Assembly: GCA_002787155.1 (NCBI GenBank)
Contig: PCVY01000023.1
Span: forward strand, 6,828-70,827
Length of the DNA stretch: 64,000 nucleotides
DNA from: Candidatus Abzuiibacterium crystallinum
Lineage (GTDB): Bacteria; Omnitrophota; Omnitrophia; Omnitrophales; Abzuiibacteriaceae
Direction: 5' to 3'
A program made the position numbers and the translations under genes. Shown in pieces: positions 23,947 to 64,000 of this stretch; the stretch's first letter is position 1, and each line of letters begins with the position of its first letter. The notes below the pieces were generated by a model. That model saw nothing but the letters and a program-made list of their open reading frames with translations. It was not told the DNA's origin and did no database searches.

Positions 23947-23955
23947 GCAGATACC

Positions 23956-29416: not shown

Positions 29417-30064
29417 ATGAAATTTAAATTACCGATTGACCAAAGAGCTTGGCCGGGTTCGGCAATCCTCTTGGCGCTCTCTTTTTTGCTTTATTTTATA
29501 TGTCATCTGCCTGGCTGGGCGTTGGTTGTTTTTATTTTATGGATGGGGCATTTGGTTTTTTTCAGGGATTTGCCTTGCCGTCCTCAGGAAACGAATGTCA
29601 TTTATTCACCCGCCTGCGGCACGGTGGTTGACATTGAAACGGTGGCGGAAGATCAATTTTTAAAAACCGCCTGTATCAAAATAGGCATTTTTTTATCCAT
29701 TTTTGACGGACATGTAACTTTGGCGCCCTTAACGGGAGAAATCGATCACATTCAATATGTCCCGGGCAAGTTTTTGAATGCCCTTAAACAGGATTCGGCA
29801 CTCAAAAATGAGGCCAATTGGATCGTGTTGAAAAAGGAGGGAAAAAAAGTTGTCGTCAAGCAAATCACTGGTGCCATTGCCCGCCGCATTTATTGTGATG
29901 TGAAAGTTGGAGAAAAGGTTGCAGTTGGCCGGAAAATGGGTATTATCTGTTATGGTTCTCGTGTCGAAGTCTATATACCAGAGGGCATGAGCCGGTTACA
30001 GGTTCGCAAAGGGGATTATGTGCGTGCCGGTCAATCAATCTTAGGAGCATGGATAAATGAATGA
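29417..30064 (+). CDS. psd: phosphatidylserine decarboxylase-related (short/archaeal-type) proenzyme
   Basis: 215 aa. 'GRKMGIICYGSRVEVYIP' has a GS(R/T) self-cleavage-like motif. Paired with pssA. Confidence 0.65.
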   Translation: MKFKLPIDQRAWPGSAILLALSFLLYFICHLPGWALVVFILWMGHLVFFRDLPCRPQETNVIYSPACGTVVDIETVAEDQFLKTACIKIGIFLSIFDGHVTLAPLTGEIDHIQYVPGKFLNALKQDSALKNEANWIVLKKEGKKVVVKQITGAIARRIYCDVKVGEKVAVGRKMGIICYGSRVEVYIPEGMSRLQVRKGDYVRAGQSILGAWINE

Positions 30065-30812: not shown

Positions 30813-30822
30813 AGCAGATTTC

Positions 30823-31425
30823 ATGCTCATTAGTTTTCTCCTTGGTTTCGTCGTTGCTTTGCTTAGTTGGCAGGTTAATTTAATTGCGACACATCAAGGA
30901 TTGCGCTACCGCCGGAGCGCAGCTTTCGCCGCAGGGATTGGTGCTACCTTTGGGGATTTGATTTACTTAGCGATTGCGCTCACCGGCAGCATTCGATTAG
31001 AACAGTTTCCGCAAGCCTGGTGGCTCATTAAATGGATCAGTGCGCTCGTTATTATTTTTATGGCTGCGCGCATGTTTTTTTACCCCATCGAATTAGCAGA
31101 TTCTCAAATGACGGCTGAAAAAGCGCATGTGCATAGTTTCGCGTTTGGTTTCATTCTGGTCGTCGGAAATCCGTTAATTCTTCTCATTTGGTTCGTGATT
31201 GTTAATTCTTTTTTGGAAGAAGTATTAAACCTTCATCGTCCCATGATGCAGGTCTTCATTTTGGCAGGTTTTTTCTTGGGCAGCTTATCCTGGTTTGCTC
31301 TATTAGCAGGTTTTCTGCTCGAGAAGATAAATCGTTTGGAAACGAAGTATCTGCAACAATTCTCGCGCGCAGGCGGTATCCTCCTCTTATTTGCCGGCAT
31401 CATGACACTACTGAAACATATCTAA
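30823..31425 (+). CDS. LysE/RhtB-type small membrane exporter (tentative)
   Basis: 200 aa with 5-6 TM segments. Assignment rests on a loose family resemblance. Confidence 0.45.
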   Translation: MLISFLLGFVVALLSWQVNLIATHQGLRYRRSAAFAAGIGATFGDLIYLAIALTGSIRLEQFPQAWWLIKWISALVIIFMAARMFFYPIELADSQMTAEKAHVHSFAFGFILVVGNPLILLIWFVIVNSFLEEVLNLHRPMMQVFILAGFFLGSLSWFALLAGFLLEKINRLETKYLQQFSRAGGILLLFAGIMTLLKHI

Positions 31426-31701
31426 ACAGTTCTTCACTATTCCGTATATATATGAGTCATCGGGGAATCAATCCCCGCTGGCTCAGGGTGAGAGGTCTGG
31501 AAACTCCCAGACCCCTCATATATATAAAATATGACCTAATATATGACTATTATAAAATAGAATTATATTATATTAATGTAAGTTGTTTATATATAATGAC
31601 TTACATATCATATTTTTTTCATTTCTATCCTTGTAATTTACCGGATATGCGGTAGACTTTCTAAAGTGCTTTAGTAAGTCAGTTCGCATGGTAAATAATG
31701 C
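31426..31701. promoter_or_regulatory. AT-rich 276-nt intergenic region upstream of the giant gene: 12-bp inverted repeat TATATATATGAG/CTCATATATATA (31445-31456 / 31515-31526) enclosing two GC hairpins, then a highly AT-rich presumed promoter tract with a GTAAGT..ACTTAC inverted repeat
   Basis: Read directly. I could not assign -35/-10 hexamers with confidence. Confidence 0.4.
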
Positions 31702-31800
31702 ATGTTCATCCCTAAAAATATCCAGAGAGCCATAGCCTTTTTTCTTGCCATTTCATTCTCTTTATCGAATGGCCCAACGCTTTTACTTGCCGAAACTTAT
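31702..31800 (+). other. N-terminal signal-peptide-like / signal-anchor segment of the giant protein
   Basis: 'MFIPKNIQRAIAFFLAISFSLSNGPTLLLAETY': positively charged n-region (K5, R9), a 12-aa hydrophobic core, possible cleavage at LLA|ETY. Confidence 0.45.
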
Positions 31801-34800
31801 CCGGGAAGCAGCCTGCCATACCATGCGAGCTCTGTGAATCCAAATGCTATTTTGGATTCCCTTAAGCTTCCCGGTGAGTTAGGCATTGTTCAAGAGGTTT
31901 ATAGCGCGGTACCAGGTACAACGGTGCCAGGTTCACAGAACCCGGCACCGGCTGTACCTGGTACCGGAATTGGTTTCAAAGTTAATCAACTGGTCATCCT
32001 CGTGCAAAATGCCCACGCCAATTATGATTCAGAGTCAAACGTCCGCAAAATCATCCAGTTCTTCCAAGAGCACTATCAATTAGGACTTGTTTTACTGGAA
32101 GGCGGGGAAGGCAAGTTAGACCCGCTTTTTTTTAAATCTTTTCCCGATGGCAAAATAAAAGAAAAACTGCTGGATCAATATTTAAAACATGGGGATTTAC
32201 AAGGCGGTGAAGCAGCAGCCATTTTGAATCATTCAAACAACCCAACGAGTTATTGGGGCATTGAAGATGAAACTTTGTACCAGCAAAACAAAGCGGCCTT
32301 CTTAAAAGCCATTGTTCAAACGGATCAAATCTTAAAACAGCTTACTCAAAAAGAAGCCGCACTCGAGGAAAACATTGCTTCATTGCCTGAATCATCACAA
32401 ACCTTTTACAAGGCTTGGCAGGCTTTTCATGCGGATGAGATGAATTTGCTGGAATACGTGAAAACGTTAGCTGAGCATACATCGGGTACCGGTTCTGTTG
32501 ACAGTGTCATTCCCGCTCGTCTTTGGCGGGAATCTACTGTGATCGGTGCTCTTGTGCGCTCATTTCCCGAACTTGCCAAATTGTTGGAAGTAGAGAAAGG
32601 CGAGCAAGCCCTCCAAAAAAGCGAAATTGACATGACCGTCAACCAACTGTTGAAAGAATTTCAATCAACTGCGCTGCCGGCGCTGTCAGTCGAATCACAG
32701 AAAGAATGGGGCCAGCGGATCCAGGATTATCAAACCGGCCGGCTCGGCGTGGGTTTTTTGATCAAACAGCTTGAAAGTTTTCTTACCATTCCCGATGTTC
32801 TAAAACCTGCTATTCAGCACGCCCAAACCATTTCTTCCGTCCGGGGAACAGAAATATTCCATGAACTTGAGCATTTAGAGAATGCTGTTCGCGATCAATT
32901 GCCGGGGCGTGAGCGCCTTCATCAAGTTAACGAACTGCATCTCTTGAAACGGTTTGCGCGTTTAGAAATTACACATGAAGAGTGGAAGGTCATTGCGAGC
33001 GCAGCGAAGCAATCTCAAGACCAAGGATTGCTTCGGTCATTTCATTCCCTCGCAATGACAGAAATGCTTAAGAACCATTTCACTTTCTACCAACTCGCAC
33101 TCAAGCGTGACGGCATTTTATCCGGCCGCATTCTCGAAATCATGCGCCGTGAATCTCAAAAAGTTTCGCTCGTGGTGACCGGCGGTTTTCATGAAAGCGG
33201 TATCAAAGAGCGCCTCCGGGCAAACGGCACCGCTTATGTTTTGATTTCTCCTGCGATTCAGGAAGTCGGATCAAACGAGGCTTACCTCAATGCCATGCAC
33301 GACAAGCGTTCTTTTATGAAATATTTTCAAGGCAGTTATTGGGATGCTTTGGCAAAGGATTACATGCAGCAATCGTCAGCGGCTGCGGGTCCGCAGGAAG
33401 AAAAGTTTATTTTTAAGCAGTGGCGCGATCAACTCATCCAAAACACGCTGCAGGAGGGCAGAATCACGCAGGCAACGCGTTACACGCGCTATTTGGATTC
33501 ATTTTTACAAACCGAGGGAAAACCAGCGGATGACAAAGTTGGCAGAAAAACTCAATTAGAAGGTGCTTTCGAAAGTTTCCTTTCAACTTATTTTAAACAG
33601 CATCAAGCTGATTTGAATGCCAAGCTTGATCATTTTGCGGCAGGTTTCAAAAATATGCTCACACAGGGCACCTTCACGCAAGGGGCGGTCGAAGCCTTGT
33701 TGCGTCAAACACAAGTCCTGCAAACGGCTCAACTCGCACCGGATCTCGCTTTGATTCCGGCCTGGAACCAATTTCATTTAAGTGAAGCAACGATTGAAAC
33801 ACTGCCTGATATCAACCAACCTCTTTGGCTCGAGCACAAGCAAAAATCCGAACTCAGGAGTGAAGAGGTAGACTCTGATTATTGGTATGCTTATGGTGAG
33901 GAATTCCTTATTTTGATGGAAGAGGTGGGGTACCGGATAGATGAAACTGACCTTGAAGGTGATATAACTCTGGAGGTAGAGACAGTATCAGACGATCGCT
34001 TTCCTAAAGATTTTAGCAAATTAGCTAAAAGTGTTCCCGAATCGGACCTCACACGTTTACGCGACACATATATCCATATTCTAAAGAATGCCATTGGGAA
34101 AAGTCGAACACTTGAGGAGATAGTTGAAGGCTTGAGCACTTTAATATTAAGGCAGGCAGGAATTCGATTAAATGACAGAAAATTAATTGAAGCCATTACT
34201 GATATTTTACTAACCTATAAAGAAAAAGGGGTGACGGGACCCACCCTGCAGCTGCGCCACGTTTATCTATTTCCAAGATATGGTGATGTGAATGAAATCA
34301 TTCAATTACTGGCCAACCATCGAGGGAAACGCGGAACCTTGAGCCAAACCCAACGGCAACTGATTGCACAGCAACTCGAAAACATGAAAGAGCAATGGCA
34401 AGCAAATTACGAAAGAGCTCAAGCCGAAAAAACCGAAGAACCTAAGGTTGATGGTCAACCCAAAACCGGTGAATCGCTTTGGCTGGAGGGTCAACCAAAA
34501 CCCGAACTCAGAAACGCAAAAGATTATACTCAGATGAGTGTCAAAGAATTGCTTGTAGAACTTCAATCAACTCGAAGTCAAAGTAGTCAAGTCAATTTTA
34601 AAATACTTAGGATTACCAGCGAGCTGGAGCAGCGCTCAGAGAAGATGTTAGACAGCGAGATAGTGGCGACTATCAATGCTTTACTTTCTGCATTGATGTT
34701 AATTGAGCCATCCAGCGAGGATGCGCTTCACGCTCACACTTCATTGAGGGCGGTGTTAGAACGATTGATAGAGGAAGTCTCTCAAGATGAGCTTGTTTCT

Positions 34801-58800: not shown

Positions 58801-61800
58801 CTGACAGTCATCATTTCTGTTCTCTTCGATTTAATAAAGGCATATGAAGATTCAAGCCAAAGCGAGCAGGCGCTGATCCGGTCGATTTTCAAAAAGGTGA
58901 TTAAACGTCTTGATCAAACAGAACTGCTCCATCTGAGCCAACGCTTGTTAGGTGTTTTCCAATCGATGGATAGTTCCGAATATTTGGCGCATCAAGCCCG
59001 AGAATCGTTGGTAAAAGCTTTTATTGCGGTCACGCAAAACATTGATTACTCAGCTTTTCCGCGCGTGATTGAAATCATGCTTAATTTTGCGCAATCACGT
59101 GAGCTGCAATATGATATCGGCGGCACACGTGGGGAGCCGGCAAGGTTAAGATTTGAGTTGGCACCCGCTCTCGCGGCTATGGTGAAGCGTGTTCCGCGAA
59201 ATAAGCGTCTTCAAACCATTCAATTTTTGCTTGATCATCTTCGTTTGATGGCTCAAACGTACGAAACCGTGAATATGGGTTCAGAGATCGTCCGGTATTC
59301 GTTGAATGAGATAACAGAGCAAATGGATTCCCGCGCGTTGCTTGATCTGACTCAATTATTATGGCGCACATTGGAATTACTGGAAGATTCAAGCAGGTCT
59401 GCCTTTGATGTGAAGTTTAGGATTCTTTATGTTTTGGATGATGTGATAGGGAAAGAGGCCGAAGTAAACTCTAGCCGTTTGACGGAAGACTGGCGTCACA
59501 GGATTGATCAATTGATATCGTATTTACGTCGGACACCTAATCACAAGAGAGATACATTTGATATCAGATGGATGGTCAGACGGATTTTAATGACCATTAC
59601 CTCAAAACTTGAGGGGCCTAGACTTAACGATGCTGTTGCCGGGCTTTTAGATCAACTGGAGTCTATCCATGACTCTGATGATGTCAGTAACGGCGCCAGG
59701 CAGGTGATAGCGGATGTTTTGGCTAAAGCCGTTCATGGTTATGATAAGGCGTTATTGTCTCGTGCGGCATCCGTGCTTTTTGAAACGTCAAAATTAATTG
59801 TCACGCAAAATCAAGAAGCCAATCAAGCAAAAGCCGCATATGGAAAAGTATTAGTGGAAATTGTTTTACGGCTGGATGAATCCGCATTGTCTGCCCTGGT
59901 AGCGCCTCTCGGGCAATTACTCGATTCCGTTATCCCTATACACAAAGATAGAGTGATTCAGTACGAGAGAGATTCGCTTGGCGCAGCTTTATCAATTGTT
60001 ATTTTGCGATTACACCAGATTAATTTTCATTATGTAAGAGATCCCAGCGCTTATCCAGATCCCAATGATTATATTGATTTTTTACAATATAACATCGCAA
60101 TGCTATTTAACCTCTATATCGAAGACCCTTCTTTTTCCGCGCAGACTAAATGGGATGCCATTGAGCAATTCACTCGAGATGTTATGGGTGACGATCAAGT
60201 GCTTCCGGAAGCAAAGCGCGAGGCCCTGATGGGAAAAATTGGCACATACCGTGAACAGTTGGATGCTGCTTACAAAAGGCATCAGTCCGAGGAAGGCGGC
60301 AGCCAAGACACCGGCCCTGAAGTCCAGGATGAACCGGGCGATTCGCTTTGGTTGGCACGTGCTTCTACCGGAAAGTCAGAACTCAGGGAGGATGCGCTAA
60401 GTCGGATGACAGAGAATCAGTTATTTGATGCATTAATATCCATATCATTTCATGACGACACAACCATTTTTCATCGTTATGCAGGTCCTTTGATATGGGA
60501 ATTGGCCGCAAGGGTAAGGCGTATTAAGAACCCGCTTAGTCAGGAGGTTTTGCTTCAGATGGTGCCAAAACTCCTGGAAGTTTACTTGAGGCATAAAGTT
60601 GTTGAGGAATGGCTTGATCAATTAAGGCAGGAAATCGATCATACACTCAGCGACATTGCCAAACGGTTAAAAAATCAAGAACGTACAGAAATGTTGAAGA
60701 TGATTTTGGATTTCTTGTATTCATTCCCAGGCGCCGGGGTTGAGCTGAATCGCGTCCGGGTAACTGCGGGAGACGTTTTGCGGGAAATCGCAAGAGGCAC
60801 TGATGCCGAAGAACTGCCTGATTTATTAAATTCGGTTTTATCCATTTATCAAGCAATCAAAGGATCAGACAGAGATGCCAATCAAGCCAGATGGAGAATG
60901 GGAAGTGCGTTAAAAGAAATCGCTAAACGTATTGATTCATCCCAATTACTTCCCTTGGTTACACCTCTTTTGGATTCTCTTTCACTGATGGCAGATCCAA
61001 GAGACCCGTCAAGCGCGTACGCAAATACGGCATACCGCACTGTTGCCAATATTTTAAGAACCATCGTGAAACGCATAGATCCCCATCAACTGCCTGAAAT
61101 AAAAGCGCCGCTTTTAGGTGCGCTGACGCATATACAAGGCGACACCGAAGCTGCGCGTTTTGCACGGGGTGATATTAGCAGATTGCTTGCGGAACATTAT
61201 TTACGCTCACATGGATTAGCCTTAAGCGGACGCGGGGGTAATTTACTCAAAGCTTTTGCGGATGTTTTTGCGGCCGCATCACCGGACGGAATATCGGTAT
61301 TTCCTCTCTATGGTGATCAAAAAGAAATTGATCGTCTTTTTCAAAGTGCCGCAGACAAAAATGGCCGCATAGCACCTCAAATGCGTCAGCAACTCATTTC
61401 ACAACTTCAAACTTACCAAGAACAATTAATCGCCGCGTATCAAAGGGATCAGAGATCAGGGAACAGGGATCAGGGGACAGGGAACAGGTCACAAGACACG
61501 GGAACAGATGAGACGCTTTGGGCGGCGGGGGTTGCCGGCAGCGTGAGTGCGGGAGCCATCGCGTCCGCGGCCCGCAGTGAACCATCGACTCGCAGCGAAC
61601 TGCGCTCAAAAGATTATTTCCATCAGGCAACAGAGAACTTGCTGCGCGAATTGGCCGCGCTTCAAGGGTCTAGCGATGATGTCAATCAACGCAGGAAATG
61701 GATGGCGGATGCGCTGGACGGAGAGGTTATTAAGAGAGTACAGTCTTCGATGCTTCCCGTGTTTTTATATCCGCTCCTCCGCCAGCTTGATGCGATTGAA

Positions 61801-64000
61801 AACGCCGGTGTATTAGCCAACCAAGCCAGAGCATCTCTTGGGAATCATTTGGTAACCATCGCCGTCTATGTTGATGCCGGTCATTTACCGGCCATGTCAG
61901 GAGTTACGATGAAAGCTTTGGCGCGAATTCAGGGGGATGATCCCGCAGCTAATAATGCCAGAGGCGTGATGACATCGATTTTAAGACAAGTTACAAGACG
62001 CATCGAACCGCATGAACTGCTTCAAATCAAAGGGGCGTTTCTCGCAGAACTCGCAAAACCTCTGGGCAATGGTCAAGAAGCACGCTATGTAAGGTGGGGT
62101 ATTTTTTATTCATTAGAAGAGCTTGCTAAACGGATTGACACGGCAGAACTGCCGCACTTAACGGCCGTGATGCTGAATGAACTAGTGAATACGGCTGAGC
62201 GAACGGATGATACTGCCAATGAAACCAAGCAATCGGTCGGAAGGGTTTTAAAAGAAATTGCTCATCGTATTGATTCTGATGCCCTGCCCGGTCTGATAGC
62301 GCCTGTCGTGGCGGCGTTGGATGGTGTCACAGACCTCAGCAAATCTGCCTACGAAGTTCAAAGCTCTCTCACATCGGCGTTGACAGCAATCGCAAATCGT
62401 GTGCATGAACGGGAACTTCCCCAACTGATTCCGCCGCTTCTTGGGACATTAAAAAAGATTTCGGAAGCAAAAGGCGAAGATGAAAAAAAGGCGGCTGATG
62501 ATGTGAGACTGCACGCGGCGGTTGCCGTCCAGGCAGTGTCTCGGCGTGTTGCTGATGTTCGTGAGATTGATCTGCTTGCTGCGTCCATGACGGATGAACT
62601 TGCGAAATTCAAAGACCCGAATCATTCAACGTTAGCCACACTAAGAGCGGTTGCAGAAGCGCTTGCCGTTATTTATATGAGGCTTCACGATCTTTCATTA
62701 AAAAATGAACCGTTATTTCACGCCCTCAGAGATCTTTTGAAAGTGGAATATGTAGTTGACGCAAAGCTCTTTCCCGCTTATGGAAGCTTGGAAAATGTTA
62801 AACAGATCCTCCAACACGCAGATCCGGCACGGATGACTGCCCAATTGAACGCTTACCGCAAACAATTAATCGCTGAGTATCAAAGAGATCAGGGAACAGG
62901 GATCAGGGATCAGGTGTCGGGGGATGGGGATCAGGGGACGGGGAACAGGTCAAAAGACACGAGAACAAATGAAACCCTTTGGACGGCGGGGGTTACCGGC
63001 GGTGTGAGTGCGGGAGCGGAGATTACAGGAAGAAGTGAAATGCGGAAAAAAGTAGACAGCACTGCCGGTTCTCGCTCCGAACCCCACTTGAGTCCAACCG
63101 ACTCAAGTGCTGTCCGTCCCGAAAAGCCAACCGCTTTTCGAGCGGAACTGCGAACCAAAGATTATTCCCGCATGAGCGTTGATGAATTGTTAAATGAACT
63201 TCAGTCAATCAAAGGATCAACTGATGATGCCAATTGGGCAAGACGAGTCATTACCGATGTCTTCACAGAAATATCAAAAAGAATTGATGAAACCGAACTT
63301 CCCGCTATTTCACAAGCGTTGTTGATCACTTTAAAAGAAATCAAAGGATCAACTATTTATGCCAATATTTATGCCAATTGGGCAAGACGGGCCATTGCCG
63401 ATGCCCTCGGAGAAATATCAAAAAGAATTGCTGAAACCGAACTTCCCGCTCTTTCACAAGCCTTGTTGATTGCTTTAAAAGAAATCAAAGGATCAACTTT
63501 TGATGCCCATCCGGCAAGACGGGCCATTGCTGATGCCTTCCGAGAAATATCAAAAAGAATTGATGAAACCGAACTTCCCGCTATTTCACAAGCCTTGTTG
63601 ATCGCTTTAAAAGAAATCGAAGGATCAACTGATGATGCCAAGCATATGAGATGGGTCATTGTCGATGCCCTCAGAGAAATATCAAAAAGAATTGATGAAA
63701 CTGAACTCATCGCTATTTCACAAGCCTTGTTGGCAGCTTTGAAGAAAATCAAAGGATCAACAACTGATGATTATGCTCATGGTGCAAGAGAGGCTATTGG
63801 CAAAACCCTAGCTGTTATTGTGTTGCGATATCATCAAATCCCTATTTCAGATGAGAGAAATGATTTATTGAGCGCTCTTCAAGATGTCTTTACACTTGAA
63901 ATGAACGGTGTTTCCATCTATCCCATAGAAAACCATCATCCATTGAATAACCCAAACAATTCCATTCATCAAATCTTTAAACAACATGGCCAAAACCACG
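31702..64000 (+). CDS. giant modular protein (at least 10,766 aa; 3' end beyond window): N-terminal signal-like segment, HEAT-like repeat arrays, six tandem MoxR/midasin-class AAA+ domains, HExxH motif, CoxE-like VWA/MIDAS domain, further repeat modules
   Basis: Frame 1 (positions = 1 mod 3) has a stop at 31696-31698, an ATG at 31702, and no stop through nt 64000. I translated the frame by eye and found no in-frame stop; about 25 stretches were checked in detail for frame. Every + strand ORF in the supplied track between 31.8 and 64 kb is in frame 2, and no terminated frame-1 ORF is listed. The translation contains six Walker A/B pairs, a DxSxS MIDAS motif and at least 15 conserved linker cassettes. 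Confidence 0.85.
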   Translation, partial: MFIPKNIQRAIAFFLAISFSLSNGPTLLLAETYPGSSLPYHASSVNPNAILDSLKLPGELGIVQEVYSAVPGTTVPGSQNPAPAVPGTGIGFKVNQLVILVQNAHANYDSESNVRKIIQFFQEHYQLGLVLLEGGEGKLDPLFFKSFPDGKIKEKLLDQYLKHGDLQGGEAAAILNHSNNPTSYWGIEDETLYQQNKAAFLKAIVQTDQILKQLTQKEAALEENIASLPESSQTFYKAWQAFHADEMNLLEYVKTLAEHTSGTGSVDSVIPARLWRESTVIGALVRSFPELAKLLEVEKGEQALQKSEIDMTVNQLLKEFQSTALPALSVESQKEWGQRIQDYQTGRLGVGFLIKQLESFLTIPDVLKPAIQHAQTISSVRGTEIFHELEHLENAVRDQLPGRERLHQVNELHLLKRFARLEITHEEWKVIASAAKQSQDQGLLRSFHSLAMTEMLKNHFTFYQLALKRDGILSGRILEIMRRESQKVSLVVTGGFHESGIKERLRANGTAYVLISPAIQEVGSNEAYLNAMHDKRSFMKYFQGSYWDALAKDYMQQSSAAAGPQEEKFIFKQWRDQLIQNTLQEGRITQATRYTRYLDSFLQTEGKPADDKVGRKTQLEGAFESFLSTYFKQHQADLNAKLDHFAAGFKNMLTQGTFTQGAVEALLRQTQVLQTAQLAPDLALIPAWNQFHLSEATIETLPDINQPLWLEHKQKSELRSEEVDSDYWYAYGEEFLILMEEVGYRIDETDLEGDITLEVETVSDDRFPKDFSKLAKSVPESDLTRLRDTYIHILKNAIGKSRTLEEIVEGLSTLILRQAGIRLNDRKLIEAITDILLTYKEKGVTGPTLQLRHVYLFPRYGDVNEIIQLLANHRGKRGTLSQTQRQLIAQQLENMKEQWQANYERAQAEKTEEPKVDGQPKTGESLWLEGQPKPELRNAKDYTQMSVKELLVELQSTRSQSSQVNFKILRITSELEQRSEKMLDSEIVATINALLSALMLIEPSSEDALHAHTSLRAVLERLIEEVSQDELVSIIPVLHTTLEQIHGTSSQANMARVTITRILEKLSKKVPLPALASIQNALLLALKLTEGSDIDTSHTRNNIAHCLALVTLRYYQVIHLTDNRLPFISLEKLLSMVSSGPDRISLFPIYGDLEVIGQILQSQDQTNMIQQLNAYREQLMAQYQREQRSGIRGQGTGNSLPDHDPLWTAGVAGGVNAGAGADRAELRNKNYSQMTADELLQALKSVQGTNEASTDTRRALSNALNAAFRRMNQEELPAIFQDSLAAIKEIGESDERTQARDWIAMPLFALIQKIDEDQLAFVFENLIAVLREIKGSSHAAIQVRFSIIQNLILIVHRRHHRSYTSPGDKLAQALHVLFSAASSKVWVFETYGSLHALDQIFESKDDKTIIAKLSAYREQLIALSLREEAPRVKGQEQQDTGGGSGDTDQNDSIWAATVLGPANVSASIKIHSSRSELRMKRRLDPLDQLLNDLKSLKGSGDTTNGIRADLADALTTLGRKLTESQLFLIVDPIITQLEQIEGSRYTANRAKLAITSFINMAASRLSPTQLGGLVKPLFNQIVFKRELEELTSNIPVSFGDSLLEVVREIDQTQLQEVARLLFDYLTNLPDDLEYTNLSLRSICRALTMVFKRIDTFPWSEAVAAFKTLHRNTEQTRTFYPAFPWISDVLAMALLRMHQIEIEKGRDSLFSALSRLLEFHKDDTVLFLRHGDFNEVNSILQSHADRSTKTAQLNHYREQLLALHQREQGAGSREQGTPPHSVGRIRPPAEGIRSQDTDHELWLSGPVGAGAVGVGAAVLNTKSELRTHGDDEYDVMGFESKYWKMDLNELLDELWFILWFNEEGWGKSFDRNTIIEITDHIQRKSKEADQDELVPAARRLFDALEKTVKYFNRDTAAPHLAVARALAAVHWKIHGFNTSEWSNELFLTLEDIFVIAIGEKSLFLSYSSPAAIKQILELKDQNAMIYQLKALREQILAAYQREQGTGDSAAHRRADPSSGGREQEPRDTGSHEPLWTAGVGAGVLLSAKSELRVQFFQIALTKLVDFARQNASLFFRYVINRQKVVERDDDDYEKMSTDELLDDLQFIHLAYAFRHVPPQRRWDISLSLGWRVQKMTKPELLDFSRKLLTILTTTKGSSENAHQIRSAAAGVFKEVVRIIPDTELLAIFKALFSALKITHQSLSVAFSHAARIEERAITDTFEIIRKRMPKADFSQVVDEYLAVLEEIKNRKFLFWEKTIQHQTLHLMGEAVYSFPEAQLRRTAKELIAILRALKDQGGNVNEIRILLLYVFRNIVERLPEADLGGYVTELLSTFDAIKGSNEHAGEAKGDIGHILSKAAERMPPSELPHFADEALIRLESTPNRGNQAYQTTRAMAEALWGFAKAVDPEKADPQKMSKIMNLLLEKLKLIKGKGDNEEWAKIHILLALGAIAKKIPHQELPGLSNAILSELTHYEFNDGLKGRLIDVLIAIADSIDLAELPKISNELLDVLKEMGELNDDEDGGYQTLVTIAVFFEQITPKISETELPRISKAFLTALAAIKGSSYNLDRVRRFVGDVLALISLRINHLPLDNKPLIEQLQKFFSLAPASHSLFPMYGDLNEIGHILKLEDHKQVIAQLNAYQAQLLARYQREQGTPPHSVGRIRPPAEGNREQGTGIRSQDTDHDLWLSGPVGAGIRAELRNKDYSKMTIDELLQALQMGRSDQEAQELKIGIAKVLKESAKTMQPTELQHLSNRLLLLLEAAPAKGRAGRQTIQAVADIYQVIAMKIDPAELPKILEALLTASKLPLKYDVDGRDAKRFITIALTKVAERIPEEKLPTILNYALLELSHYDLDDQLTYSLIFVLDAVANRIQPTELPRILHALLDKLKTIKSLDDKDEEDLIWQVVMIAAFTFKSIAARMSATELPAISKRLLEIRSLAKRDSTQAEKTRDALLAPFPAIAARIDKKELPNLFDQFVDILKNTHRTDASPGSSSNMRLRSRKVLAIIFLRNHQLPLDDETLAKALENLLGIHSPTDSLFPIYGEFSEIDRILRLPGREQMIAQLTIYRKQLIAQSQRDQGTGNREQGTGDGEQGTGIRSQDTESNDTLWVISPAVERSELRTKDYSRMSVDELLNELQSIKGSTIDVNWAREAIADTLTEILKRIDPTKLPAISQALLTALKEIKGFADDANRTRWAITFSFPEILQRIDPTELPAISQALLITLKEIKGLSNATNEARRTITFSFPEILQRIDPTELPAISQALLIALKEIEGSTDAANQARWVIADAFREMPKRIDKSELPAISQTLLAALKEIKGSTIGANQAREAIGKTLAVIVFRHHQIPVTDETNDLLSALQDVFTLEMNGVSIYPIENHHPLNNPDNPIHQIFKQHDQDYAQIMSQLNRYREQLSAQHQRDQGTGNREQGTGIRSQDTDHDLWLSGPVGVGAGLTKAGRQSADHDKRVELRNESPNLEDLSPTDEAREVEVVIKAIHALTDSVWKQPLPRLNTRSNAGAELASLVNQCVHLIRDTKMTVNEQIQLVKAFLHLLESFESLYLKTLVGSASHLQLHWLLRHVMTAIPFGQITPIRHEIYLSQEIARRQGPSRNTTLHIDFLSEILIMLALKQAGFKGTWDTLAVDKIYNTNVWKELGDFYSGTVRVRREGIGFLHQYADDAEINKIINIWLDDSGNLDHTRAEQVITQLKLYIDQLLHQIKIKANEEPGTDDAEQSADSRPEDIWLRGSFRPQGGLGPSKSELRTAKSKSDLGKRLTQLAKDLEAEVEARQIKGLAKQLLENKSTRTKTDAQIESEIKEKAADDAAMDRLIAHLKIARALKEAGNDFLRDYEQTHYLKLAKIQQPNAVLWGLRFLDLDDIQDPEIRRLMGKLQSLLMVNEFFGRSSAAFVESVLTEFIVNTVIGDDFGMTELLTSLDPNQNLIELFQDWGVNVQLKYSREHTGIQALYDIARLYSKVFPEFNNNARTGFITHDFKEMLREPEGDADRNQQARALARGGAAQALNLLTIRLLGLPAGRTMEQQWQELFKITEKGIPNLQKPEHLNGARAEDILAGLAEISKTSQGQLKEVVAELIQGRFKLLVNHDVERFKQIGIIIGFTGIDGFAKIPFGRLREKYHLTEGSEEEGRLLKIVAQISRTAREGTGGLIEEVFDLYSQEAGEHLDDLNKLLQAFSYFVRLVNFHHDYERLVLEGDIGKVNNEALFVSLRDLKRTLDIVKKNDAKGMDIRDAIASAVKRRYYNRLSIEDRGIVRDLMARHRLIHENDLLDFDYVIDGFKNGSSRIRIYRKRKSGPARFKRTEVKPGEYKMELIQESVGKPELLLEIPLAQPLANVDPKIILNETTRRNLANILDALEVEEGKRFNPVLEFGVTSGGKSTTAALVAKILGVGFTRIQINERTDEFDLFGSFQPYEINITLEEAIQLLQEALATNNYNGLEDVFSRLKSDQTGQFWENYFNAQERQTIELGKDSRYPQRSVLERQRAAIRDKLKQLADKQLELAQSLKSLSAQERRLIDSKTDNPVWQAQLAQLRREEAEGFDQLNRIKSIAFMLNHEVGLRYKEGRFLTAYKRGDLILLDEVNLANEEMLGVLYQLLTLGYLEYNGKVIEPPLGKQARILATANPSGYAGRRRMSEAFMNRFEIIHVDEMTDEEMRDIVVGQMMKDLIASGRYTAGDFEQNSDEAPEVWDKKINKILQEEYGITRESTRLLAGVQRKFNSILATGSFPRMGSDSNYVFTLRNLQRIAGDVKERKENGERITLETWIREAYGEYAGVLMRPSTQPSYTAERLKPDESLPAEHHLWDDPDYKTIRRVFTTFMGELIAGESHQSYDDAFDELIRRHFETIPYVYDSTAHAIKLDGLLTQGAEPNDQNPIEPLIEVGSTKMVQRQILKGIRRNIPTLLVGQSGGGKTEIIGDLVNRLGRQYISVSLGDATLESLIGTMEYNRMEKRFVYRRGVLVKAMEEGSVLVLEELNMAKSGILEILNEYFDDGTFTNPFTLKQVAVHRDFRLFATMNPIQGETGENLGRVSLSPALRNRFREIWVPHKKTDAEMNEILIGKFKQLGVEKIEKATGAKIIGFFRAYEEAFKDQADPVYYTSLRDLNRIAKIMAYLINELDMHESDALARAIDRVYRLRMQNSGALAVVDQILIELKIKIPGAGQLSYQSRNGVLEVRDGQTLVAKLDLSLIQAKLRDRIRGELSADTDPAELEALTEKRLKTLLDEAVLVENPRTKAHLLDLMEAVTLPSGEVKKGKFNPIFLLGETAGGKSSLTKYLALHLLGQNYTRIQFNERTDEFDLFGAYEPRELHMGLDRAFRIVQNAMEQGEWVKIKKALKLWQTGALTEDDLSELEMIEKVEERIRTVDLEASQQITKILKDASEEDVLGDPGQKREAERKLKTIAFLIENNMLNVELEFREGRLLQAIRRGDVVVLDEMNLANEEALAVLYQLLTLGYVEYYHKDTRQVERITPAPGFKLMATANPASYAGRHRLSEALMNRFEIHYVMNMTPQEMTEILRGENSHEPVFERDQSFQTTVEKLTLLQENINEALRNGQFPEVSSDQVQGYLFTLRNLKRVLRNTAELLRQGDSSPPSESLIRQAYLEYLGVLGRSDASIKTLQSLFKAPKQFPQFNPDFRISFESMTMPNGQSGILAGGFKVVRRFYEDEAEGVSHDADVIEELEEGATTNLIRQAIAKGLLDSRMAVLLVGQSGGGKTEMIGDLARRLGWRYRSVSLGNATLESLVGGYAMDHETKKFRYIPGILIQAMREGAILVLEEMNMAPSGLLEILNEYFDESTFTNPMTGQKEKIHPNFRLFATMNPEKGVTSTSEGRVGLSPALRSRFSEVWVPHIRTQAETERIIRKKFSNRGVSHVPPKVTEDIYRVYDQYRRFVEEGKIGQESNEGYYVGLRDVVKIIDLVAQDQSRGIPMEEALRFAFKRIFYLRLNSDADRKTVQEEILKTYDMSKTEYQWKSVNDHWVVKRTQWQTAEVPKALLKEKGFILTPQSQEELALLLEAMQRGVTIQGKAAARSFNPMMLFGETSGGKSTLVEIAASIFRTPFTRIQMNQRTDEYDLLGSYHPVEVKLTFEQAYEVVQSVIRQNQTLRTAQVLRALHITDDHVKSVLRINPDQTMPLEQLQKRFLEEHVLANARQGNPKSIEQMKDIGALLLNGVAGIELIFREGMLLQAMGDRETGRPGQVVLLDEFNLANEEAIGILYQLLTLGYIEFQGRKIFPGKGFQLIVSGNPSRYSGRRRMSEAFMNRFEILNRPSMTKEEMVKILTEKYALEASGISKSGIEALVDLQFDIEETAQSIGFDFFNQDNTYRFSLRNLERIVQDLKKRMEVEPERSVQVMLREEAYLEYAGLLSQSTDEDDPKKNNLKVLAGLFKKHFNWEIDPETVLPEFKKQTLVKGEDEWISLNGVRVRKLSPHQMLESLQLELNEEIRSGALADDDGGKLVLLTEANLVRILAQVEKRLASHDPLSRKEIMREEARTEYLKMLGESPRLVKRLDELINQHFYTQAERIEPLVELKSTRLVRMQILKGFRDGGVIRSRDTEGREVLNHRSQPVLLVGQSGGGKTEEIADAARELNRPYISVALGAATIESLIGSFVLNSETGTFEFRKGIMVRAMEEGSALTLEELNMAESSIIEVLNEYFDRGTMTIQERNVPIRIHPNFRLFATMNPTEGRTGRNAGRIPLSPALRSRFREVWVRNERNKGEQYRLMLGGIHALVSSLITRGLPEDRPDELENLELDWTRRRLAETAGQQVQFASSESLSAALKAGPSITLPRHDSSAIRMAKASEDGTPKEKPTSKEWERMAINERKRIYEEQFRIVSHGIMNIMSSDEAIELGLSRDGSHHWAYAPSINTLIYNSREIMTLSLDALIGVGVHESMHRYGTRYTSLFADFLDAQSLAGSFFNILEDGRIENWARYRFRGVERPLRTLNDEIIFDFEDDNEMVERMIKTSKDGKDIGHAGAIGNFFLYLAKRGSDPGAGKVIEKFLKAFEERDPALKEDIENLMQAGYFGGARDEDIIDAARQRKAQGVFSAIPVSPDDVGVYRVDPNPSEETILQLAIHQGILIRDFIMPVVYKWAVLQAEGEGSGKSGSGGAPGRGKIVIRPGKPGEESTPISPREWKKIWDSLSENDKKKILDTLDDLKKKAQDRTAKDSIDHKNAAIDAEITEPKSERDRLMSQMGKMIHELAGYLRDLIQNTIRPKEITGLKKGRIDVRRLMNAMARGFTDMRFYKQRIIPDKKDIKFTLIIDESGSMAGMGESGKGPEDNAAAKGYRTLMGAALLMEVLETLGIDFAVRGYGDDTFLHKRFKGQRIELSDQRAHFPPVPDGYATRKEKDTLIDDLYGSIGNHGGNNEGPALQAAIRDILKAGGEKHFVIVITDAMGDTKAIQEILDEVRAKKGMIGSTQTEFIAIGLGNDTESVPEVYGSEHGFWLHDDEVHKLPSEIKKLLQNVIRGVYAPGSGTPSRFSQFGKRMTDSASMAGAAGVGASTASASSAARSHSELRADDLESKVRKIIIRLARSQGDGLSAEQEHTDMLRRLGVLANRRSPEEVFEIVIEMMADETVGFSRKENAIRRAIMEAFLKELTPSAVLTSSAINELQDLMHTLAREAHSPEAQAEIDVIKSRIKELRLKLIMRQEVFTYAKITQLLSLDPSETVDLFLESLLSGDYSSGVDRKRMASNFGNLISNLNGELLLQTTEQIIEAIRTDPRAHIDPYENLEKYGSKIAYERHSILLEGLLVAVKKVDRSILQSIVDCMVQDLQYERSKKLKAEILAIALLRQENIITTNPSQEEKSLINALVNLPGRSTFQTSDLKEITLMLQHAKPKRGRLSSQAIKVLREQIKNFDEQIRARATRAQNENEQRSEDNLLPPDTESELWLENPRAELRTENDGSRRVDQLLKELQSIQGSSDEANRIRRDIGRALKKTVEENAIIDPSHAAQVLISTLHQIKGSNAGAYKAKEAIGWALAEVAKKIETTELPKISQAFISVLEAIEGSSAAATNLRLNAAWMLDGTAQRIDLTELPAIFQALISALGQLRGSDAGTRNGRTDFGFVLTDIVFRYHQLAPYLESSESELHSAMRNLMTMLSFSDDVPLFPRYGDWDTLHQIFEMGDSKKIIQNLKKFREQIFAQYQREQRSGDREQGTRDRLQDTGTNETLWTAGVAGSVSAGAFVPAARSELRTKNYFRTAVDKLLRKLRSMRVHRLLRELKGLIGNTTSDAHWARLDIAGALIRISKKTDSTDLPAVTQALFLVLSTTERSSSLGLEEERRLGVFRALREISKRIDSAELSAILHALFSVLRETKGSFVSAAYERRAIANIFIEISRRIDQTELPAMMQGLLSVLLEVFEDSGSADHDAIEAVAGVLNEISKRIDQANLLNFTQALLLALSEIKGSNQDASTARTKIAIVLREISKSIADTELPTVTQALLKALNESEGFDTYASDARAQIAVALEEILKRIDETELPAVAQALISISNKFKSLGYSFWPNSTIQEALAVIVFRHHQMPVTDETNDLLSALQDVFTLEMNGVSIYPIENHHPLNNPDNPIHQIFKQHGQDHAQIMSQLNRYREQLSAQHQREQRSGDRGQGTGNSLPDQDSLWAAGVGLGTFLFTARNELRNGWLAERGHYLVHRFVHMVYGIRIKFRKKDHITERVLALINELKSLKGSGPDVVQSITDLATSLVENLKHIDQKDLPYVLDVLLSTLKQIKGSDDRATDARVWITTVLGTMVDRLDKKERTKLVKEFLSISRQMKGTMVNNIFVWTNILQTFAAMLAYLDDHERPLIIEELVTALKDIEDPTGNADLIRKNISETLSIFFFHRHGYPDLENKDPLFVALKKLFGATQNAVSLFPRYGDLTEVDRILQLEDREKIISQLNAYREQLMAQYQRDQRSGNRDQVSGDGGQGSGNRSQDMNDDLWLVGLAGAAAVHRTELRGVESLFRQLINLVRSALGRKQPAGSLKTKLHALIGMRTEEAHQQRASLLVQLKNEVSYASLSELTVIISVLFDLIKAYEDSSQSEQALIRSIFKKVIKRLDQTELLHLSQRLLGVFQSMDSSEYLAHQARESLVKAFIAVTQNIDYSAFPRVIEIMLNFAQSRELQYDIGGTRGEPARLRFELAPALAAMVKRVPRNKRLQTIQFLLDHLRLMAQTYETVNMGSEIVRYSLNEITEQMDSRALLDLTQLLWRTLELLEDSSRSAFDVKFRILYVLDDVIGKEAEVNSSRLTEDWRHRIDQLISYLRRTPNHKRDTFDIRWMVRRILMTITSKLEGPRLNDAVAGLLDQLESIHDSDDVSNGARQVIADVLAKAVHGYDKALLSRAASVLFETSKLIVTQNQEANQAKAAYGKVLVEIVLRLDESALSALVAPLGQLLDSVIPIHKDRVIQYERDSLGAALSIVILRLHQINFHYVRDPSAYPDPNDYIDFLQYNIAMLFNLYIEDPSFSAQTKWDAIEQFTRDVMGDDQVLPEAKREALMGKIGTYREQLDAAYKRHQSEEGGSQDTGPEVQDEPGDSLWLARASTGKSELREDALSRMTENQLFDALISISFHDDTTIFHRYAGPLIWELAARVRRIKNPLSQEVLLQMVPKLLEVYLRHKVVEEWLDQLRQEIDHTLSDIAKRLKNQERTEMLKMILDFLYSFPGAGVELNRVRVTAGDVLREIARGTDAEELPDLLNSVLSIYQAIKGSDRDANQARWRMGSALKEIAKRIDSSQLLPLVTPLLDSLSLMADPRDPSSAYANTAYRTVANILRTIVKRIDPHQLPEIKAPLLGALTHIQGDTEAARFARGDISRLLAEHYLRSHGLALSGRGGNLLKAFADVFAAASPDGISVFPLYGDQKEIDRLFQSAADKNGRIAPQMRQQLISQLQTYQEQLIAAYQRDQRSGNRDQGTGNRSQDTGTDETLWAAGVAGSVSAGAIASAARSEPSTRSELRSKDYFHQATENLLRELAALQGSSDDVNQRRKWMADALDGEVIKRVQSSMLPVFLYPLLRQLDAIENAGVLANQARASLGNHLVTIAVYVDAGHLPAMSGVTMKALARIQGDDPAANNARGVMTSILRQVTRRIEPHELLQIKGAFLAELAKPLGNGQEARYVRWGIFYSLEELAKRIDTAELPHLTAVMLNELVNTAERTDDTANETKQSVGRVLKEIAHRIDSDALPGLIAPVVAALDGVTDLSKSAYEVQSSLTSALTAIANRVHERELPQLIPPLLGTLKKISEAKGEDEKKAADDVRLHAAVAVQAVSRRVADVREIDLLAASMTDELAKFKDPNHSTLATLRAVAEALAVIYMRLHDLSLKNEPLFHALRDLLKVEYVVDAKLFPAYGSLENVKQILQHADPARMTAQLNAYRKQLIAEYQRDQGTGIRDQVSGDGDQGTGNRSKDTRTNETLWTAGVTGGVSAGAEITGRSEMRKKVDSTAGSRSEPHLSPTDSSAVRPEKPTAFRAELRTKDYSRMSVDELLNELQSIKGSTDDANWARRVITDVFTEISKRIDETELPAISQALLITLKEIKGSTIYANIYANWARRAIADALGEISKRIAETELPALSQALLIALKEIKGSTFDAHPARRAIADAFREISKRIDETELPAISQALLIALKEIEGSTDDAKHMRWVIVDALREISKRIDETELIAISQALLAALKKIKGSTTDDYAHGAREAIGKTLAVIVLRYHQIPISDERNDLLSALQDVFTLEMNGVSIYPIENHHPLNNPNNSIHQIFKQHGQNH
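37028..37068 (+). repeat. 39-41 nt palindromic mini-insert CTCCGCC(A/G)CACA(G/T)CGTCGGGCGGATCCGTCCTCCGGCGGAA embedded in-frame in the heptamer arrays of the giant gene (other copies 37720-37759 and 39667-39705)
   Basis: Three near-identical copies encode 'TPPHSVGRIRPPAEG' or 'SAAHRRADPSSGG'. They share the 22-nt core with 19037-19058. Confidence 0.8.
40934..40996 (+). repeat. coding heptanucleotide tandem repeat (GGGAACA and variants, 9 units; 4 perfect copies at 40941-40968) encoding 'QGTGNREQGTGDGEQGTG'
   Basis: Period 7 nt, read directly. Similar arrays at 35255-35296, 36990-37027, 41954-41995, 56199-56250, 57539-57580, 58469-58530, 61445-61490 and 62885-62950. Confidence 0.85.
41100..41720 (+). 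repeat. array of near-identical 132-nt (44-aa) tandem repeats 'IDPTELPAISQALLIALKEIKGS..A..AR..I...F.EI.KR'. A second near-identical array lies at 63150-63790.
   Basis: 'ATTTCACAAGCC' recurs at 41221, 41353, 41485 and 41614, and at 63307, 63451, 63583 and 63715. Minus-strand 'ORFs' 41115..41543 and 63369..63752 are shadows of these repeats. Confidence 0.85.
44780..51900 (+). other. block of six tandem AAA+ domains (MoxR/midasin/dynein-related, AAA_5-like). Walker A at 44851-44880 (GVTSGGKST), 46453-46476 (GQSGGGKT), 47527-47550 (GETAGGKS), 48865-48888 (GQSGGGKT), 49855-49881 (GETSGGKST), 51457-51480 (GQSGGGKT)
   Basis: Each unit has a Walker A, a Walker B (odd units 'LLDE(V/M/F)NLANEE', even units 'L(V/T)LEE(L/M)NMA'), a sensor-like 'ATANP/ATMNP' and 'MNRFE / LSPALR(N/S)RF'. 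All are hallmarks of the MoxR/AAA_5 family. Confidence 0.8.
52414..52428 (+). other. HExxH motif (HESMH) between the AAA block and the VWA domain
   Basis: 'LIGVGVHESMHRYGT'. Could be a zincin-like site or chance. No third ligand identified. Confidence 0.25.
53430..54100 (+). other. VWA domain (CoxE/MoxR-associated type) with a MIDAS motif DxSxS at 53536-53550
   Basis: 'GRIDVRRLMNAMARG....KKDIKFTLIIDESGSMAG', later 'GNHGGNNEGPAL' and 'FVIVITDAMGD', so MIDAS ligands are present. Confidence 0.75.
63355..63378 (+). repeat. 12-nt in-frame tandem micro-duplication ATTTATGCCAAT x2 ('IYANIYAN') inside one HEAT-like repeat
   Basis: Read directly. It makes this repeat unit 144 nt instead of 132 nt. 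Confidence 0.8.

Follow-up and report, generated by a model that had tools for sequence, protein, structure and literature searches.

A 32-kb Omnitrophota gene encoding a predicted midasin-like core of six AAA+ domains between solenoid arms

Midasin (Rea1/Mdn1) removes ubiquitin-like (UBL)-domain assembly factors (Rsa4, Ytm1) from pre-60S particles. A six-AAA+ ring joined in one chain to a metal ion-dependent adhesion site (MIDAS) domain has so far been regarded as a eukaryotic invention, and the literature traces midasin and dynein to prokaryotic MoxR, which has a single domain, and dates the fusion of six domains to early eukaryotes (PMC3495828). In Omnitrophota, giant open reading frames (ORFs) beside loci resembling type II secretion systems or type IV pili (T2SS/T4P-like) are a published trait, with proteins of 39,678, 85,804 and 147,155 residues and, in one study, proteins of at least 10,000 residues on 24–28% of contigs (PMC10066038; 10.1101/2023.11.21.568195; 10.64898/2026.06.07.730766); secretion or pilus loci adjoin most of these giants (10.1101/2023.11.21.568195; 10.64898/2026.06.07.730766). 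Their contents are mostly unannotated and their roles guessed. Here we analyse one such gene, to which a testable molecular identity can now be given. It fills the second half of a 64,000-nucleotide stretch from Candidatus Abzuiibacterium crystallinum (hereafter the window; contig PCVY01000023.1 of assembly GCA_002787155.1, positions 6,828 to 70,827 of the forward strand). An initial annotation of the window had suggested an Omnitrophota lineage, and the host is indeed a Candidatus Omnitrophica/Omnitrophota metagenome-assembled genome (MAG); its remark that giant genes are a known trait of this phylum agrees with the published record, neighbouring secretion and pilus loci included, and its description of the product as one of the largest bacterial proteins has been overtaken by the sizes quoted above. 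It did not recognise the midasin-like hexa-AAA+/MIDAS core or the solenoid arms on either side. The giant-gene phenomenon itself is already known and is ordinary for the phylum. The papers on Omnitrophota giant proteins cited above make no mention of a midasin, dynein, MoxR or von Willebrand-type core, and the midasin-like core, the bead-and-joint arms and the head-domain class set out below are not described in the literature searched.

An uninterrupted frame and its AAA+ core

The giant ORF (31702–64000; all genes and domains of the window named below lie on the + strand) starts at an ATG preceded in frame by a TAA at 31696–31698, and its first 10,766 codons, read to nucleotide 63999 in frame 1, contain zero stops. 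Over the whole window the other five frames carry 1,006–1,076 stops apiece, and none of them stays open for more than 691 codons. Using the stop density of the two alternative + frames of the giant-gene region (5.7–6.7%), the chance of a stop-free run this long is P ~1e-273 to 1e-324. All eight terminated + ORFs of at least 60 residues between 31.8 and 64 kb are in frame 2, as the initial annotation had pointed out, and computational translation upholds the single frame it had traced by eye. The guanine-cytosine content of the three codon positions (GC1 0.53–0.59, GC2 0.36–0.40, GC3 0.37–0.50) is even across all ten 3-kb blocks of the ORF, and the whole frame therefore looks coding. On a near-identical 71,961-bp ENA contig the full gene is called at 11,094 residues and ends 117 nucleotides short of the contig end, in line with the earlier expectation that the protein is longer than the window; by arithmetic from this gene call the real stop would lie ~328 codons past the window end. 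JGI metagenome contigs, scanned for exact 60-mers and also with the protein, did not yield the missing 3' end. The 10,766 residues have a mass of ~1,212 kDa, and the full protein, called at about 11,094 residues, would weigh roughly 1.25 MDa. The NCBI record holds the first 3,358 residues as 'hypothetical protein, partial [Candidatus Omnitrophica bacterium]'.

Internal repeats are present in the ORF, and relatives from some MAGs have broken frames, so that an assembly artefact (a chimera or collapsed repeats) or a functionless, decaying pseudogene had to be considered. Through its upstream LysE gene the locus can be traced to 17 public contigs. Compared with the window, the NCBI MAG contig PFGO01000018.1 (GCA_002781965.1) is 100% identical across 20,603 nucleotides, the ENA contig k141_303988 is 99.95% identical (10 mismatches, ungapped) and a third contig 99.97%, the comparison covering 20.6 kb and, within it, the first ~9.7 kb of the giant gene only. 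The repeats themselves have diverged (60–94% identity; the longest is 293 nucleotides at 94%, with one 82-nucleotide stretch at 99%), which makes repeat collapse unlikely. The worry about misassembly across repeats, raised in the initial annotation, is thus answered by three assemblies that are 99.95–100% identical without indels over the compared stretches and by repeats that reach at most 94% identity over at most 300 nucleotides. Zero stops in 10,766 codons, even coding periodicity, and homologues at 35–61% identity that retain the motifs and domain order also speak against an artefact or a dead gene. We regard such an origin as so improbable that it is effectively excluded, and the 32-kb frame is one intact single gene of a Candidatus Omnitrophota bacterium.

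Six AAA+ domains span residues 4358–6757, with six Walker A/B pairs between residues 4384 and 6653, and they alternate between two types. The A-type domains D1 (44773–46188; GVTSGGKS at residue 4384, Walker B LLDE), D3 (47437–48672; GETAGGKS at residue 5276) and D5 (49759–50961; GETSGGKS at residue 6052) share the Walker A motif G[VE]T[SA]GGKS and a Walker B motif hhhhDE, set 164–208 residues apart (208 in D1, across a large and presumably helical insert, 171 in D3 and 164 in D5). The B-type domains D2 (46375–47268; residue 4918, VLEE, with LSPALRNRFREIWVPH), D4 (48787–49671; residue 5722) and D6 (51385–51972; residue 6586, TLEE) have the Walker A motif GQSGGGKT, a Walker B motif hhhhEE exactly 67 residues downstream and the signature LSPALR[NS]RF.E[IV]WV. 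D6 is without a following lid, and a B-type AAA lid (residues 4196–4266; 44287–44499; independent E-value 2.8e-10) lies ahead of D1 in a pre-ring region (residues 3757–4357; 42970–44772) that is conserved in relatives from about residue 4020. Pfam AAA_5, the dynein/midasin/MoxR type, matches the core at 3.5e-76 and 9.3e-24, with sub-threshold matches to midasin and dynein lid families. As predicted from these motifs, the ring is composed of three A+B pairs, six AAA+ domains in one chain.

Against the PDB, the whole ring matches Rea1/Mdn1 at E 1e-87 in six stretches. Single domains were also compared with the PDB, because whole-protein E-values favour six-domain targets. The B-type D4 scores 70.6 bits with Rea1 AAA3, against 40.6 with NorQ, 27.9 with CbbQ and 24.6 with CobS, and the A-type D3 scores 54.8 bits with Mdn1 AAA2, aligned over 251 of 251 residues across the insert, against 18.4 with NorQ. 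In a search of 5.8 billion proteins the first ranks are taken by six uncharacterised bacterial proteins (41–61% identity; Omnitrophica, Ca. Theseobacter), followed by a bacterial hexa-AAA protein (P0007; 28%) and then by more than 100 eukaryotic midasins at E ~1e-90.

Downstream of the ring lies an HExxH domain (residues ~6830–7112; 52189–53037) with HESMH at residues 6905–6909 (52414–52428) and EDGRIENW at residues 6937–6944. Its H, E, H, R, N, D, R, N and W are invariant in five relatives, and we consider it a putative Zn-peptidase-like module. A low-complexity G/K/S/E/P spacer of 38 residues (7113–7150; 53038–53151), which in relatives is 60–200 residues long and richer in D/E/K/G, leads to a MIDAS domain of the von Willebrand factor A (VWA) type (residues ~7203–7490; 53308–54171) with DESGS at residues 7279–7283 (53536–53550) and VITDAMGD downstream. 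The sole PDB sequence match of this region is the Rea1 MIDAS domain (6qt8; E 0.019). When its profile was aligned by hhalign to those of 40 midasin C-termini, the probability was 97.5% (E 6e-12, 249 columns), compared with 0.1–2.7% for controls, and by this measure the domain is homologous to the midasin MIDAS domain. A word-seeded homologue search with the HExxH-MIDAS region returned at most one fragment, low-complexity words having probably swamped the candidates.

Taking Rea1/Mdn1 and MoxR-VWA pairs such as NorQ/NorD as models, we consider it somewhat more likely than not that the protein is an ATP-driven, MIDAS-mediated remodeller with a midasin-like core and long scaffold arms. The six AAA+ domains would close into an intramolecular, ATP-hydrolysing ring, the MIDAS domain on its tether would grip an acidic residue of a ligand protein via a metal ion, and ring movements would pull on or remodel the ligand so bound. 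The arms may act as long, flexible, multivalent scaffolds that recruit or hold partners. All of this is inferred, from ring formation, ATPase activity and the pull on a MIDAS ligand to what the arms do and where in the cell the protein acts.

Arms, head domain, leader and genomic setting

Two arms of roughly 3,000–3,500 residues each flank the core. The N-arm (residues 716–3756; 33847–42969) consists of ten solenoid modules, each with an ARM/HEAT-like bead, a small cap, a long helix (YREQL..) and a joint predicted to be disordered. The C-arm (residues 7531–10766; 54292–63999) has at least eight more modules and a 36-residue linker segment, and runs past the window end. AlphaFold2 (AF2) modelling of one module (residues 3119–3500, paralogue alignment) gave a mean predicted local distance difference test score (pLDDT) of 81.7, above 90 over ~250 residues, for an all-alpha solenoid of ~44-residue three-helix repeats followed by a small cap and then a single long helix. 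The ~55-residue joint with LW...SELR scored 31–40 and is predicted to be disordered. Profile and fold searches with the module found generic HEAT/ARM solenoids only (PP2A-A, importin-beta, CLASP TOG, VPS35, APC), and a word-seeded search with the C-arm gave no useful match, again probably through low-complexity words swamping the candidates.

Across 16 aligned modules the E-L-R at the boundaries, the W of 'LW' and the Q of 'YREQL' are invariant. Shuffled sequence would be expected to hold 0.6 copies of the joint motif, whereas the window ORF has 17: ten copies in the N-terminal half, at 33823, 34477, 35317, 36058, 37099, 37798, 39757, 41026, 42019 and 42919, and seven after the core, at 55426, 56272, 57601, 58558, 60346, 61516 and 62977. 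One example, LW...VELR at residues 3440–3469 (42019–42108), lies inside a segment predicted to be disordered. The form [LI]W-x(3-25)-RSE[LVM]R is kept in the arms of two relatives (eight copies in P0003, five in P0001) in which the beads have strongly diverged; since the motif is kept while the beads diverge, the arms resemble strings of beads in which every connecting stretch carries a conserved short linear motif. Transmembrane (TM) helices in the joints, and with them a multi-pass topology, were considered and rejected: many joints are without a G/A stretch, and only the leader is plausible as a membrane or signal segment.

The DNA of the arms contains repeats. A 76-nucleotide joint segment encoding PPHSVGRIRPPAEG is present three times (37015, 37706, 39652). 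The N-arm module at residues 3119–3465 (41056–42096) has C-arm copies at 57265–57581 and 63142–64000, the latter cut by the window end, with 82–94% identity over 200–300 nucleotides. Such close copies indicate recent intragenic duplication or gene conversion between the arms.

The joints also admit a different interpretation, in which the giant is a polyprotein cut at LW...RSELR by the HExxH domain or another protease into some 20 ARM/HEAT proteins and a core of ~3,770 residues. It would account for joints that are predicted to be disordered yet carry an invariant short motif, kept across relatives with diverged beads; for joints that bracket the core exactly (residues 3760 and 7531); and for the HExxH...D/E motif being invariant in the family. 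West-Roberts et al. (10.1101/2023.11.21.568195) moreover speculate that peptidase domains may cleave Omnitrophota giants. However, HExxH-VWA modules are also encoded on their own, as partners of single-AAA ATPases with no polyprotein for them to cut, the HExxH fold is putative, its AF2 model being unusable, and other head-domain giants are without the joint motif. We judge processing of this kind to be rather unlikely. One may also speculate that the invariant Glu of the at least 17 RSELR joints is the ligand of the protein's own MIDAS domain, making the giant a self-reeling winch. This idea is independent of the prokaryotic origin discussed at the end, and like it we consider it possible but unlikely.

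At its N-terminus the protein has a signal-peptide-like leader (residues 1–31; 31702–31794), MFIPKNIQR-AIAFFLAISFSLS-NGPTLLLA/ETYP, which in a Kyte-Doolittle scan of the giant ORF is the sole strongly hydrophobic segment outside folded domains. The head domain of ~600 residues follows (residues ~61–705; 31882–33816), with near-invariant QDAH, EG, GIE, RD, GGFH..G and WRD. Among 1.84 billion cluster representatives, 6,698 match it at E<=1e-3 and 474 do so at E<=1e-30, with the match nearly always at residues ~70–650 of very long proteins of up to 7,864 residues. Pfam (11 members), NCBIfam and PDB profile searches assigned the head to no known family. A likeness by eye of H...E...RD...GGFH to TraB/TIKI/GumN-type hydrolases was followed up in the same Pfam, PDB profile and NCBIfam searches, which gave nothing, and that fold is at most a lead.

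The leader pattern is kept in 129 members of the head class: a net charge of +2.9 before the hydrophobic region, a hydrophobic region of ~13 residues with the consensus AFFVLISFTLLN, and then a polar stretch. The consensus is often followed by ..YA[QE] about 15–20 residues downstream (N-termini P0122–P0270). Ordinary Sec signal peptides do not usually show such sequence conservation in their hydrophobic core, and the leader may be subject to dedicated recognition or sorting. All 149 head-domain representatives are poor in cysteine (0–0.67%) and nearly all begin with a hydrophobic leader, while ring-type AAA domains are found in only two of the 149. Other cargo of the class comprises HATPase_c, PAS, receiver, Ser/Thr kinase, APH, methyltransferase, LOG-like, AAA_5 and LRR domains, which matches the repertoire of HATPase_c, methyltransferases, Lysine_decarbox and kinases published for Omnitrophota giants (PMC10066038; 10.1101/2023.11.21.568195; 10.64898/2026.06.07.730766). 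The giant ORF has all the marks of this class, namely a leader, an N-terminal motif-bearing head and cysteine depletion: there are four Cys in its 10,766 residues (0.037%) and none in the 2,400-residue ring, compared with 0.70% in 27 neighbouring ORFs (69–31425), a ~19-fold depletion. Bacterial relatives have 0.04–0.35% and eukaryotic midasins 1.0–1.95%. Head domain and leader together define a very large class, comprising more than 6,600 clusters at 50% identity and without a name in any database, by which giant proteins in metagenomes could be recognised and sorted.

Upstream of the giant gene is a type IV filament (T2SS/T4P-like) locus (9773–26147), which we treat as context rather than as a proven part of the system. 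It encodes GspE/PilB (at 9773), GspF/PilC (11502), prepilin-like ORFs (13919, 15014, 15483), a TPR protein, a ParA/MinD-like ATPase (AAA_31/CbiA; 20390), a PilM-PilN fusion of 621 residues (21455), two unknown ORFs and a secretin (24486). The ParA/MinD-like gene stands directly upstream of the PilM-PilN fusion (20390–23320), and the secretin gene is followed by those for a PEGA-domain protein and an unknown 544-residue ORF. The initial annotation had spoken of a full T4P locus; a nearly complete filament locus is there, with no PilT and no prepilin peptidase seen. The secretin operon is separated from the giant gene by same-strand genes for a phosphatidylserine decarboxylase, a PssA-like CDP-alcohol phosphatidyltransferase and a LysE-family exporter (29417–31425). 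An AT-rich intergenic region of 277 nucleotides (31426–31701) then follows, with four sigma-70-like consensus matches against 2.4 expected. The giant gene is probably transcribed from a promoter of its own here, and its start is preceded by no clear Shine-Dalgarno sequence. Just after LysE, at 31450–31530, are the inverted repeats GGGGAATCAATCCCC and GAGAGGTCTGGAAACTCCCAGACCCCTC, flanked by TATATATA runs; they were not called by the terminator scan, a T-run being absent. At the far end of the window (1666–9716) are an ammonium transporter Amt with a PII-like ORF, genes of trehalose synthesis (OtsA of GT20, the phosphatase OtsB and a TreT-like synthase) and a CLC channel that carries CBS and TrkA-C domains, which together look like an osmoprotection set unrelated to the giant.

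Leader and locus together raise the question of export. The protein could be a surface, adhesion or attack protein whose leader crosses the inner membrane and which secretin/T2SS-T4P-like machinery displays or releases; the arms would bind a host or prey surface, and the ATPase would either work only inside another cell or be non-catalytic. The family-wide conservation of the signal-peptide-like leader, the single hydrophobic segment, the extreme cysteine depletion and a secretin locus 5.5 kb upstream fit such a role, as does the published link of Omnitrophota giants to T2SS/T4P loci and to a predatory or parasitic lifestyle (PMC10066038; 10.1101/2023.11.21.568195; 10.64898/2026.06.07.730766). 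On the other hand, domain searches turned up no adhesin, toxin, lectin, Ig, cadherin, dockerin, beta-helix or glycosidase domain, so that for the 'surface or attack' function raised by the initial annotation the signs are indirect only (leader, cysteine depletion, secretion locus). The lipid-synthesis genes, LysE and the 277-nucleotide promoter-like gap separate the giant gene from the pilus genes. Around the closest relative, no T4P or secretin genes are present in the ~1.4 kb viewed upstream and ~10 kb downstream, where a PilZ gene (upstream) and genes for leucyl-tRNA synthetase (LeuRS), a glycoside hydrolase and ComEC (downstream) are found; a conserved T4P linkage was accordingly set aside for these flanks. 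All six nucleotide sites look intact and predict an ATP-containing compartment, in conflict with the export features. We see a surface or attack role as possible, if unlikely. Export signals on an ATP-dependent cargo pose a puzzle for how megadalton proteins are deployed.

Relatives and evidence bearing on the proposed function

Scanning 185,579 species genomes with a HExxH+MIDAS profile yielded 34 loci. The group at 41–63% identity is almost entirely Candidatus Omnitrophota, and the tail at 23–33% includes Planctomycetia, Elusimicrobia, Margulisiibacteriota, Patescibacteria and archaea. The Omnitrophota loci have 3,300 or more codons of open frame ahead of MIDAS, and the stretch after MIDAS in relatives varies from ~150 to more than 3,300 residues. 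At distant loci a single-AAA gene adjoins a stand-alone gene for a HExxH+VWA protein of 630–800 residues (Pfam CobT_C, VWA, VWA_CoxE). The series continues with a two-AAA protein of 1,127 residues (locus L034) and then with the fused hexa-AAA giants. At L034, in a Candidatus Margulisiibacteriota MAG (JAIRZV010000096.1), the HExxH+VWA gene (3110–5503) precedes the two-AAA gene (5749–9132), whose Walker A motifs, GETATSKS and GPTATAKT, show the same GET/GPT dichotomy as those of midasin (GETGxGKT / GPTSAGKT) and of further bacterial proteins with six AAA domains. The L034 two-AAA protein is a candidate for the ancestral 'pair' unit. The closest relative of the giant (L041; JGI Ga0247727_10000388; 61% core identity) has a homologous 22.8-kb frame of ~7,609 codons, with a 746–756-residue ORF in another frame overlapping its 3' end.

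Several points weigh against an ATP-driven remodeller with a midasin-like core. The B-type Walker B motifs (VLEE, VLEE, TLEE; 46654–46665, 49066–49077, 51658–51669) are hhhhEE and not the canonical hhhhDE. The leader, single hydrophobic segment and cysteine depletion predict export, and an exported ATPase would have no ATP. In the MIDAS domain the Pfam VWA match stays below threshold (E 0.0013), and AF2 modelling of HExxH+MIDAS from a five-sequence alignment gave a mean pLDDT of 48, a model that is not usable. The ~1,700-residue linker, the N-terminal domain (NTD) and the long D/E-rich region of midasin are absent from the giant, which moreover starts with an insert-bearing A-type, midasin even-like domain: the cyclic order is the same and the break is shifted by one domain. 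In a neighbour-joining (NJ) tree of the AAA large domains (100 bootstraps), cross-lineage domain pairings receive 0–5% bootstrap. The closest relative has an in-frame TAG at 9887, in the long insert of AAA1, giving called ORFs of 2,813 and 4,753 residues; the junction is identical in JGI, ENA and NCBI assemblies (L041, L042, L043). This TAG could be a nonsense mutation, a site of readthrough or a tolerated split, and because it recurs in three assemblies an unbroken chain may not be essential. Finally, our domain analysis spans residues 1–10766, and the last 328 of the called 11,094 lie outside it.

Comparison with known systems

Archaeovorin-type giants (West-Roberts et al. 2023; Seymour et al. 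2023; 2026 preprint) come from the same phylum and share with our protein an ORF of more than 30 kb, HEAT-type repeats, AAA_5 among the recurrent domains, a T2SS/T4P-like neighbour locus and an N-terminal region without known domains. They differ in having many TM helices, where the Kyte-Doolittle scan finds one hydrophobic segment here, and residues 1–10766 give no Pfam match to SecA_DEAD, glycosyltransferase, methyltransferase, NUDIX or peptidase C39/S8.

The likeness to midasin lies in the core. Both have six AAA_5-class AAA+ domains in a single polypeptide, of two alternating types, every second one with a large insert (in the giant, 100–140 extra residues between Walker A and B, their helicity being judged from composition only). 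In Rea1 the even domains carry helical H2 inserts, and AAA6S is absent with the NTD in its place (Sosnowski et al., PMC6286127). The spacing from Walker A to NRF is 126 residues in all B-type domains, compared with 123–127 in midasin AAA3/AAA5, and 216–262 in the A-type domains, compared with 217–238 in midasin AAA2. The LSPALRNRF.EIWVP signature is common to both, as is a DxSxS-bearing MIDAS domain. The flexible charged spacer ahead of it may answer to the midasin D/E-rich region, but at 38 residues here it is much shorter and is not purely acidic. The missing lid after D6 and the B-type lid before D1 are analogous to midasin, yet hhalign gives only 1.8% for the pre-ring region against the NTD. 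The same method gives 0.3% for HExxH and 0.2% for the arm module against the midasin linker, and at 0.2–1.8% the arms, the pre-ring region and HExxH are ruled out as homologues of the midasin linker or NTD. About 450 residues, which unlike in midasin include a HExxH domain, separate D6 from MIDAS in the giant, where midasin has its ~1,700-residue linker after the ring. The giant also has ~3,700 residues of leader, head and arm before its core and ~3,500 residues after MIDAS; the MIDAS domain is therefore not C-terminal, as it nearly is in relatives L017, L022, L023 and L040. Cysteine makes up 0.04% of the giant and 1–2% of midasin. By sequence, only the ring and the MIDAS domain are homologous to midasin, which is the closest characterised relative.

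Dynein heavy chain also concatenates six AAA+ domains in one chain that forms a ring, and the giant has weak sub-threshold Pfam matches to AAA_6, AAA_7, DYN_lid and Dynein_heavy. The giant is without a stalk, a microtubule-binding domain or linker homology, and dynein is without MIDAS. Midasin is clearly the nearer of the two.

Eukaryotic midasins being the top-scoring characterised homologues, the gene might be a true midasin orthologue, acquired horizontally from a eukaryote and acting in ribosome maturation. However, the NTD, linker and D/E region of midasin have no homologue in it, its domain register differs, identity is only 24–36%, the paralogues cluster inside the bacterial lineage, and a prokaryotic single- to two- to hexa-AAA series surrounds the same HExxH-VWA module. 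Pre-60S substrates of the Rsa4/Ytm1 type are eukaryote-specific, and to our knowledge they have no bacterial counterpart. A horizontally acquired midasin is highly improbable and effectively excluded.

In the NJ tree, clades within each lineage are well supported (giant A 100, giant B 100, midasin AAA3+5 83, midasin AAA2+4 82, P0007 odd and even 100 each). An orthology of A-type with midasin even and of B-type with midasin odd domains is favoured by best matches and inserts and is not borne out by the bootstrapped tree; we do not adopt it. The plan of three pairs is common to these proteins, with triplications that probably were independent or have been homogenised.

MoxR-VWA pairs (NorQ-NorD, CbbQ-CbbO, CobS-CobT, RavA-ViaA) belong to the same AAA_5 clade and have a MIDAS-bearing VWA partner. 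The core of the giant matches NorQ, CbbQ and CobS in the PDB and, below threshold, GvpN and CobS in NCBIfam. Whereas MoxR-VWA systems have one AAA domain per chain, assemble as homohexamers and keep VWA separate, the giant has six differentiated AAA domains fused to VWA, with arms; the VWA/MIDAS partner, fused here, stands alone beside the single-AAA genes of the distant relatives. Concatenated hexa-AAA+/MIDAS rings may have arisen in prokaryotes, from MoxR-like single-AAA through two-AAA proteins to fused giants around one HExxH-VWA partner, a proposal that we regard as possible but unlikely. The bacterial hexa-AAA/MIDAS proteins and the series around them make a prokaryotic origin testable, the alternative being repeated convergence on a ring of three pairs. 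If the prokaryotic origin is true, the view that the six-in-one-chain design was an early-eukaryotic invention would be overturned, and proteins of the Omnitrophota/Planctomycetota type would be the prokaryotic sister or source of midasin and hence of the midasin-dynein lineage.

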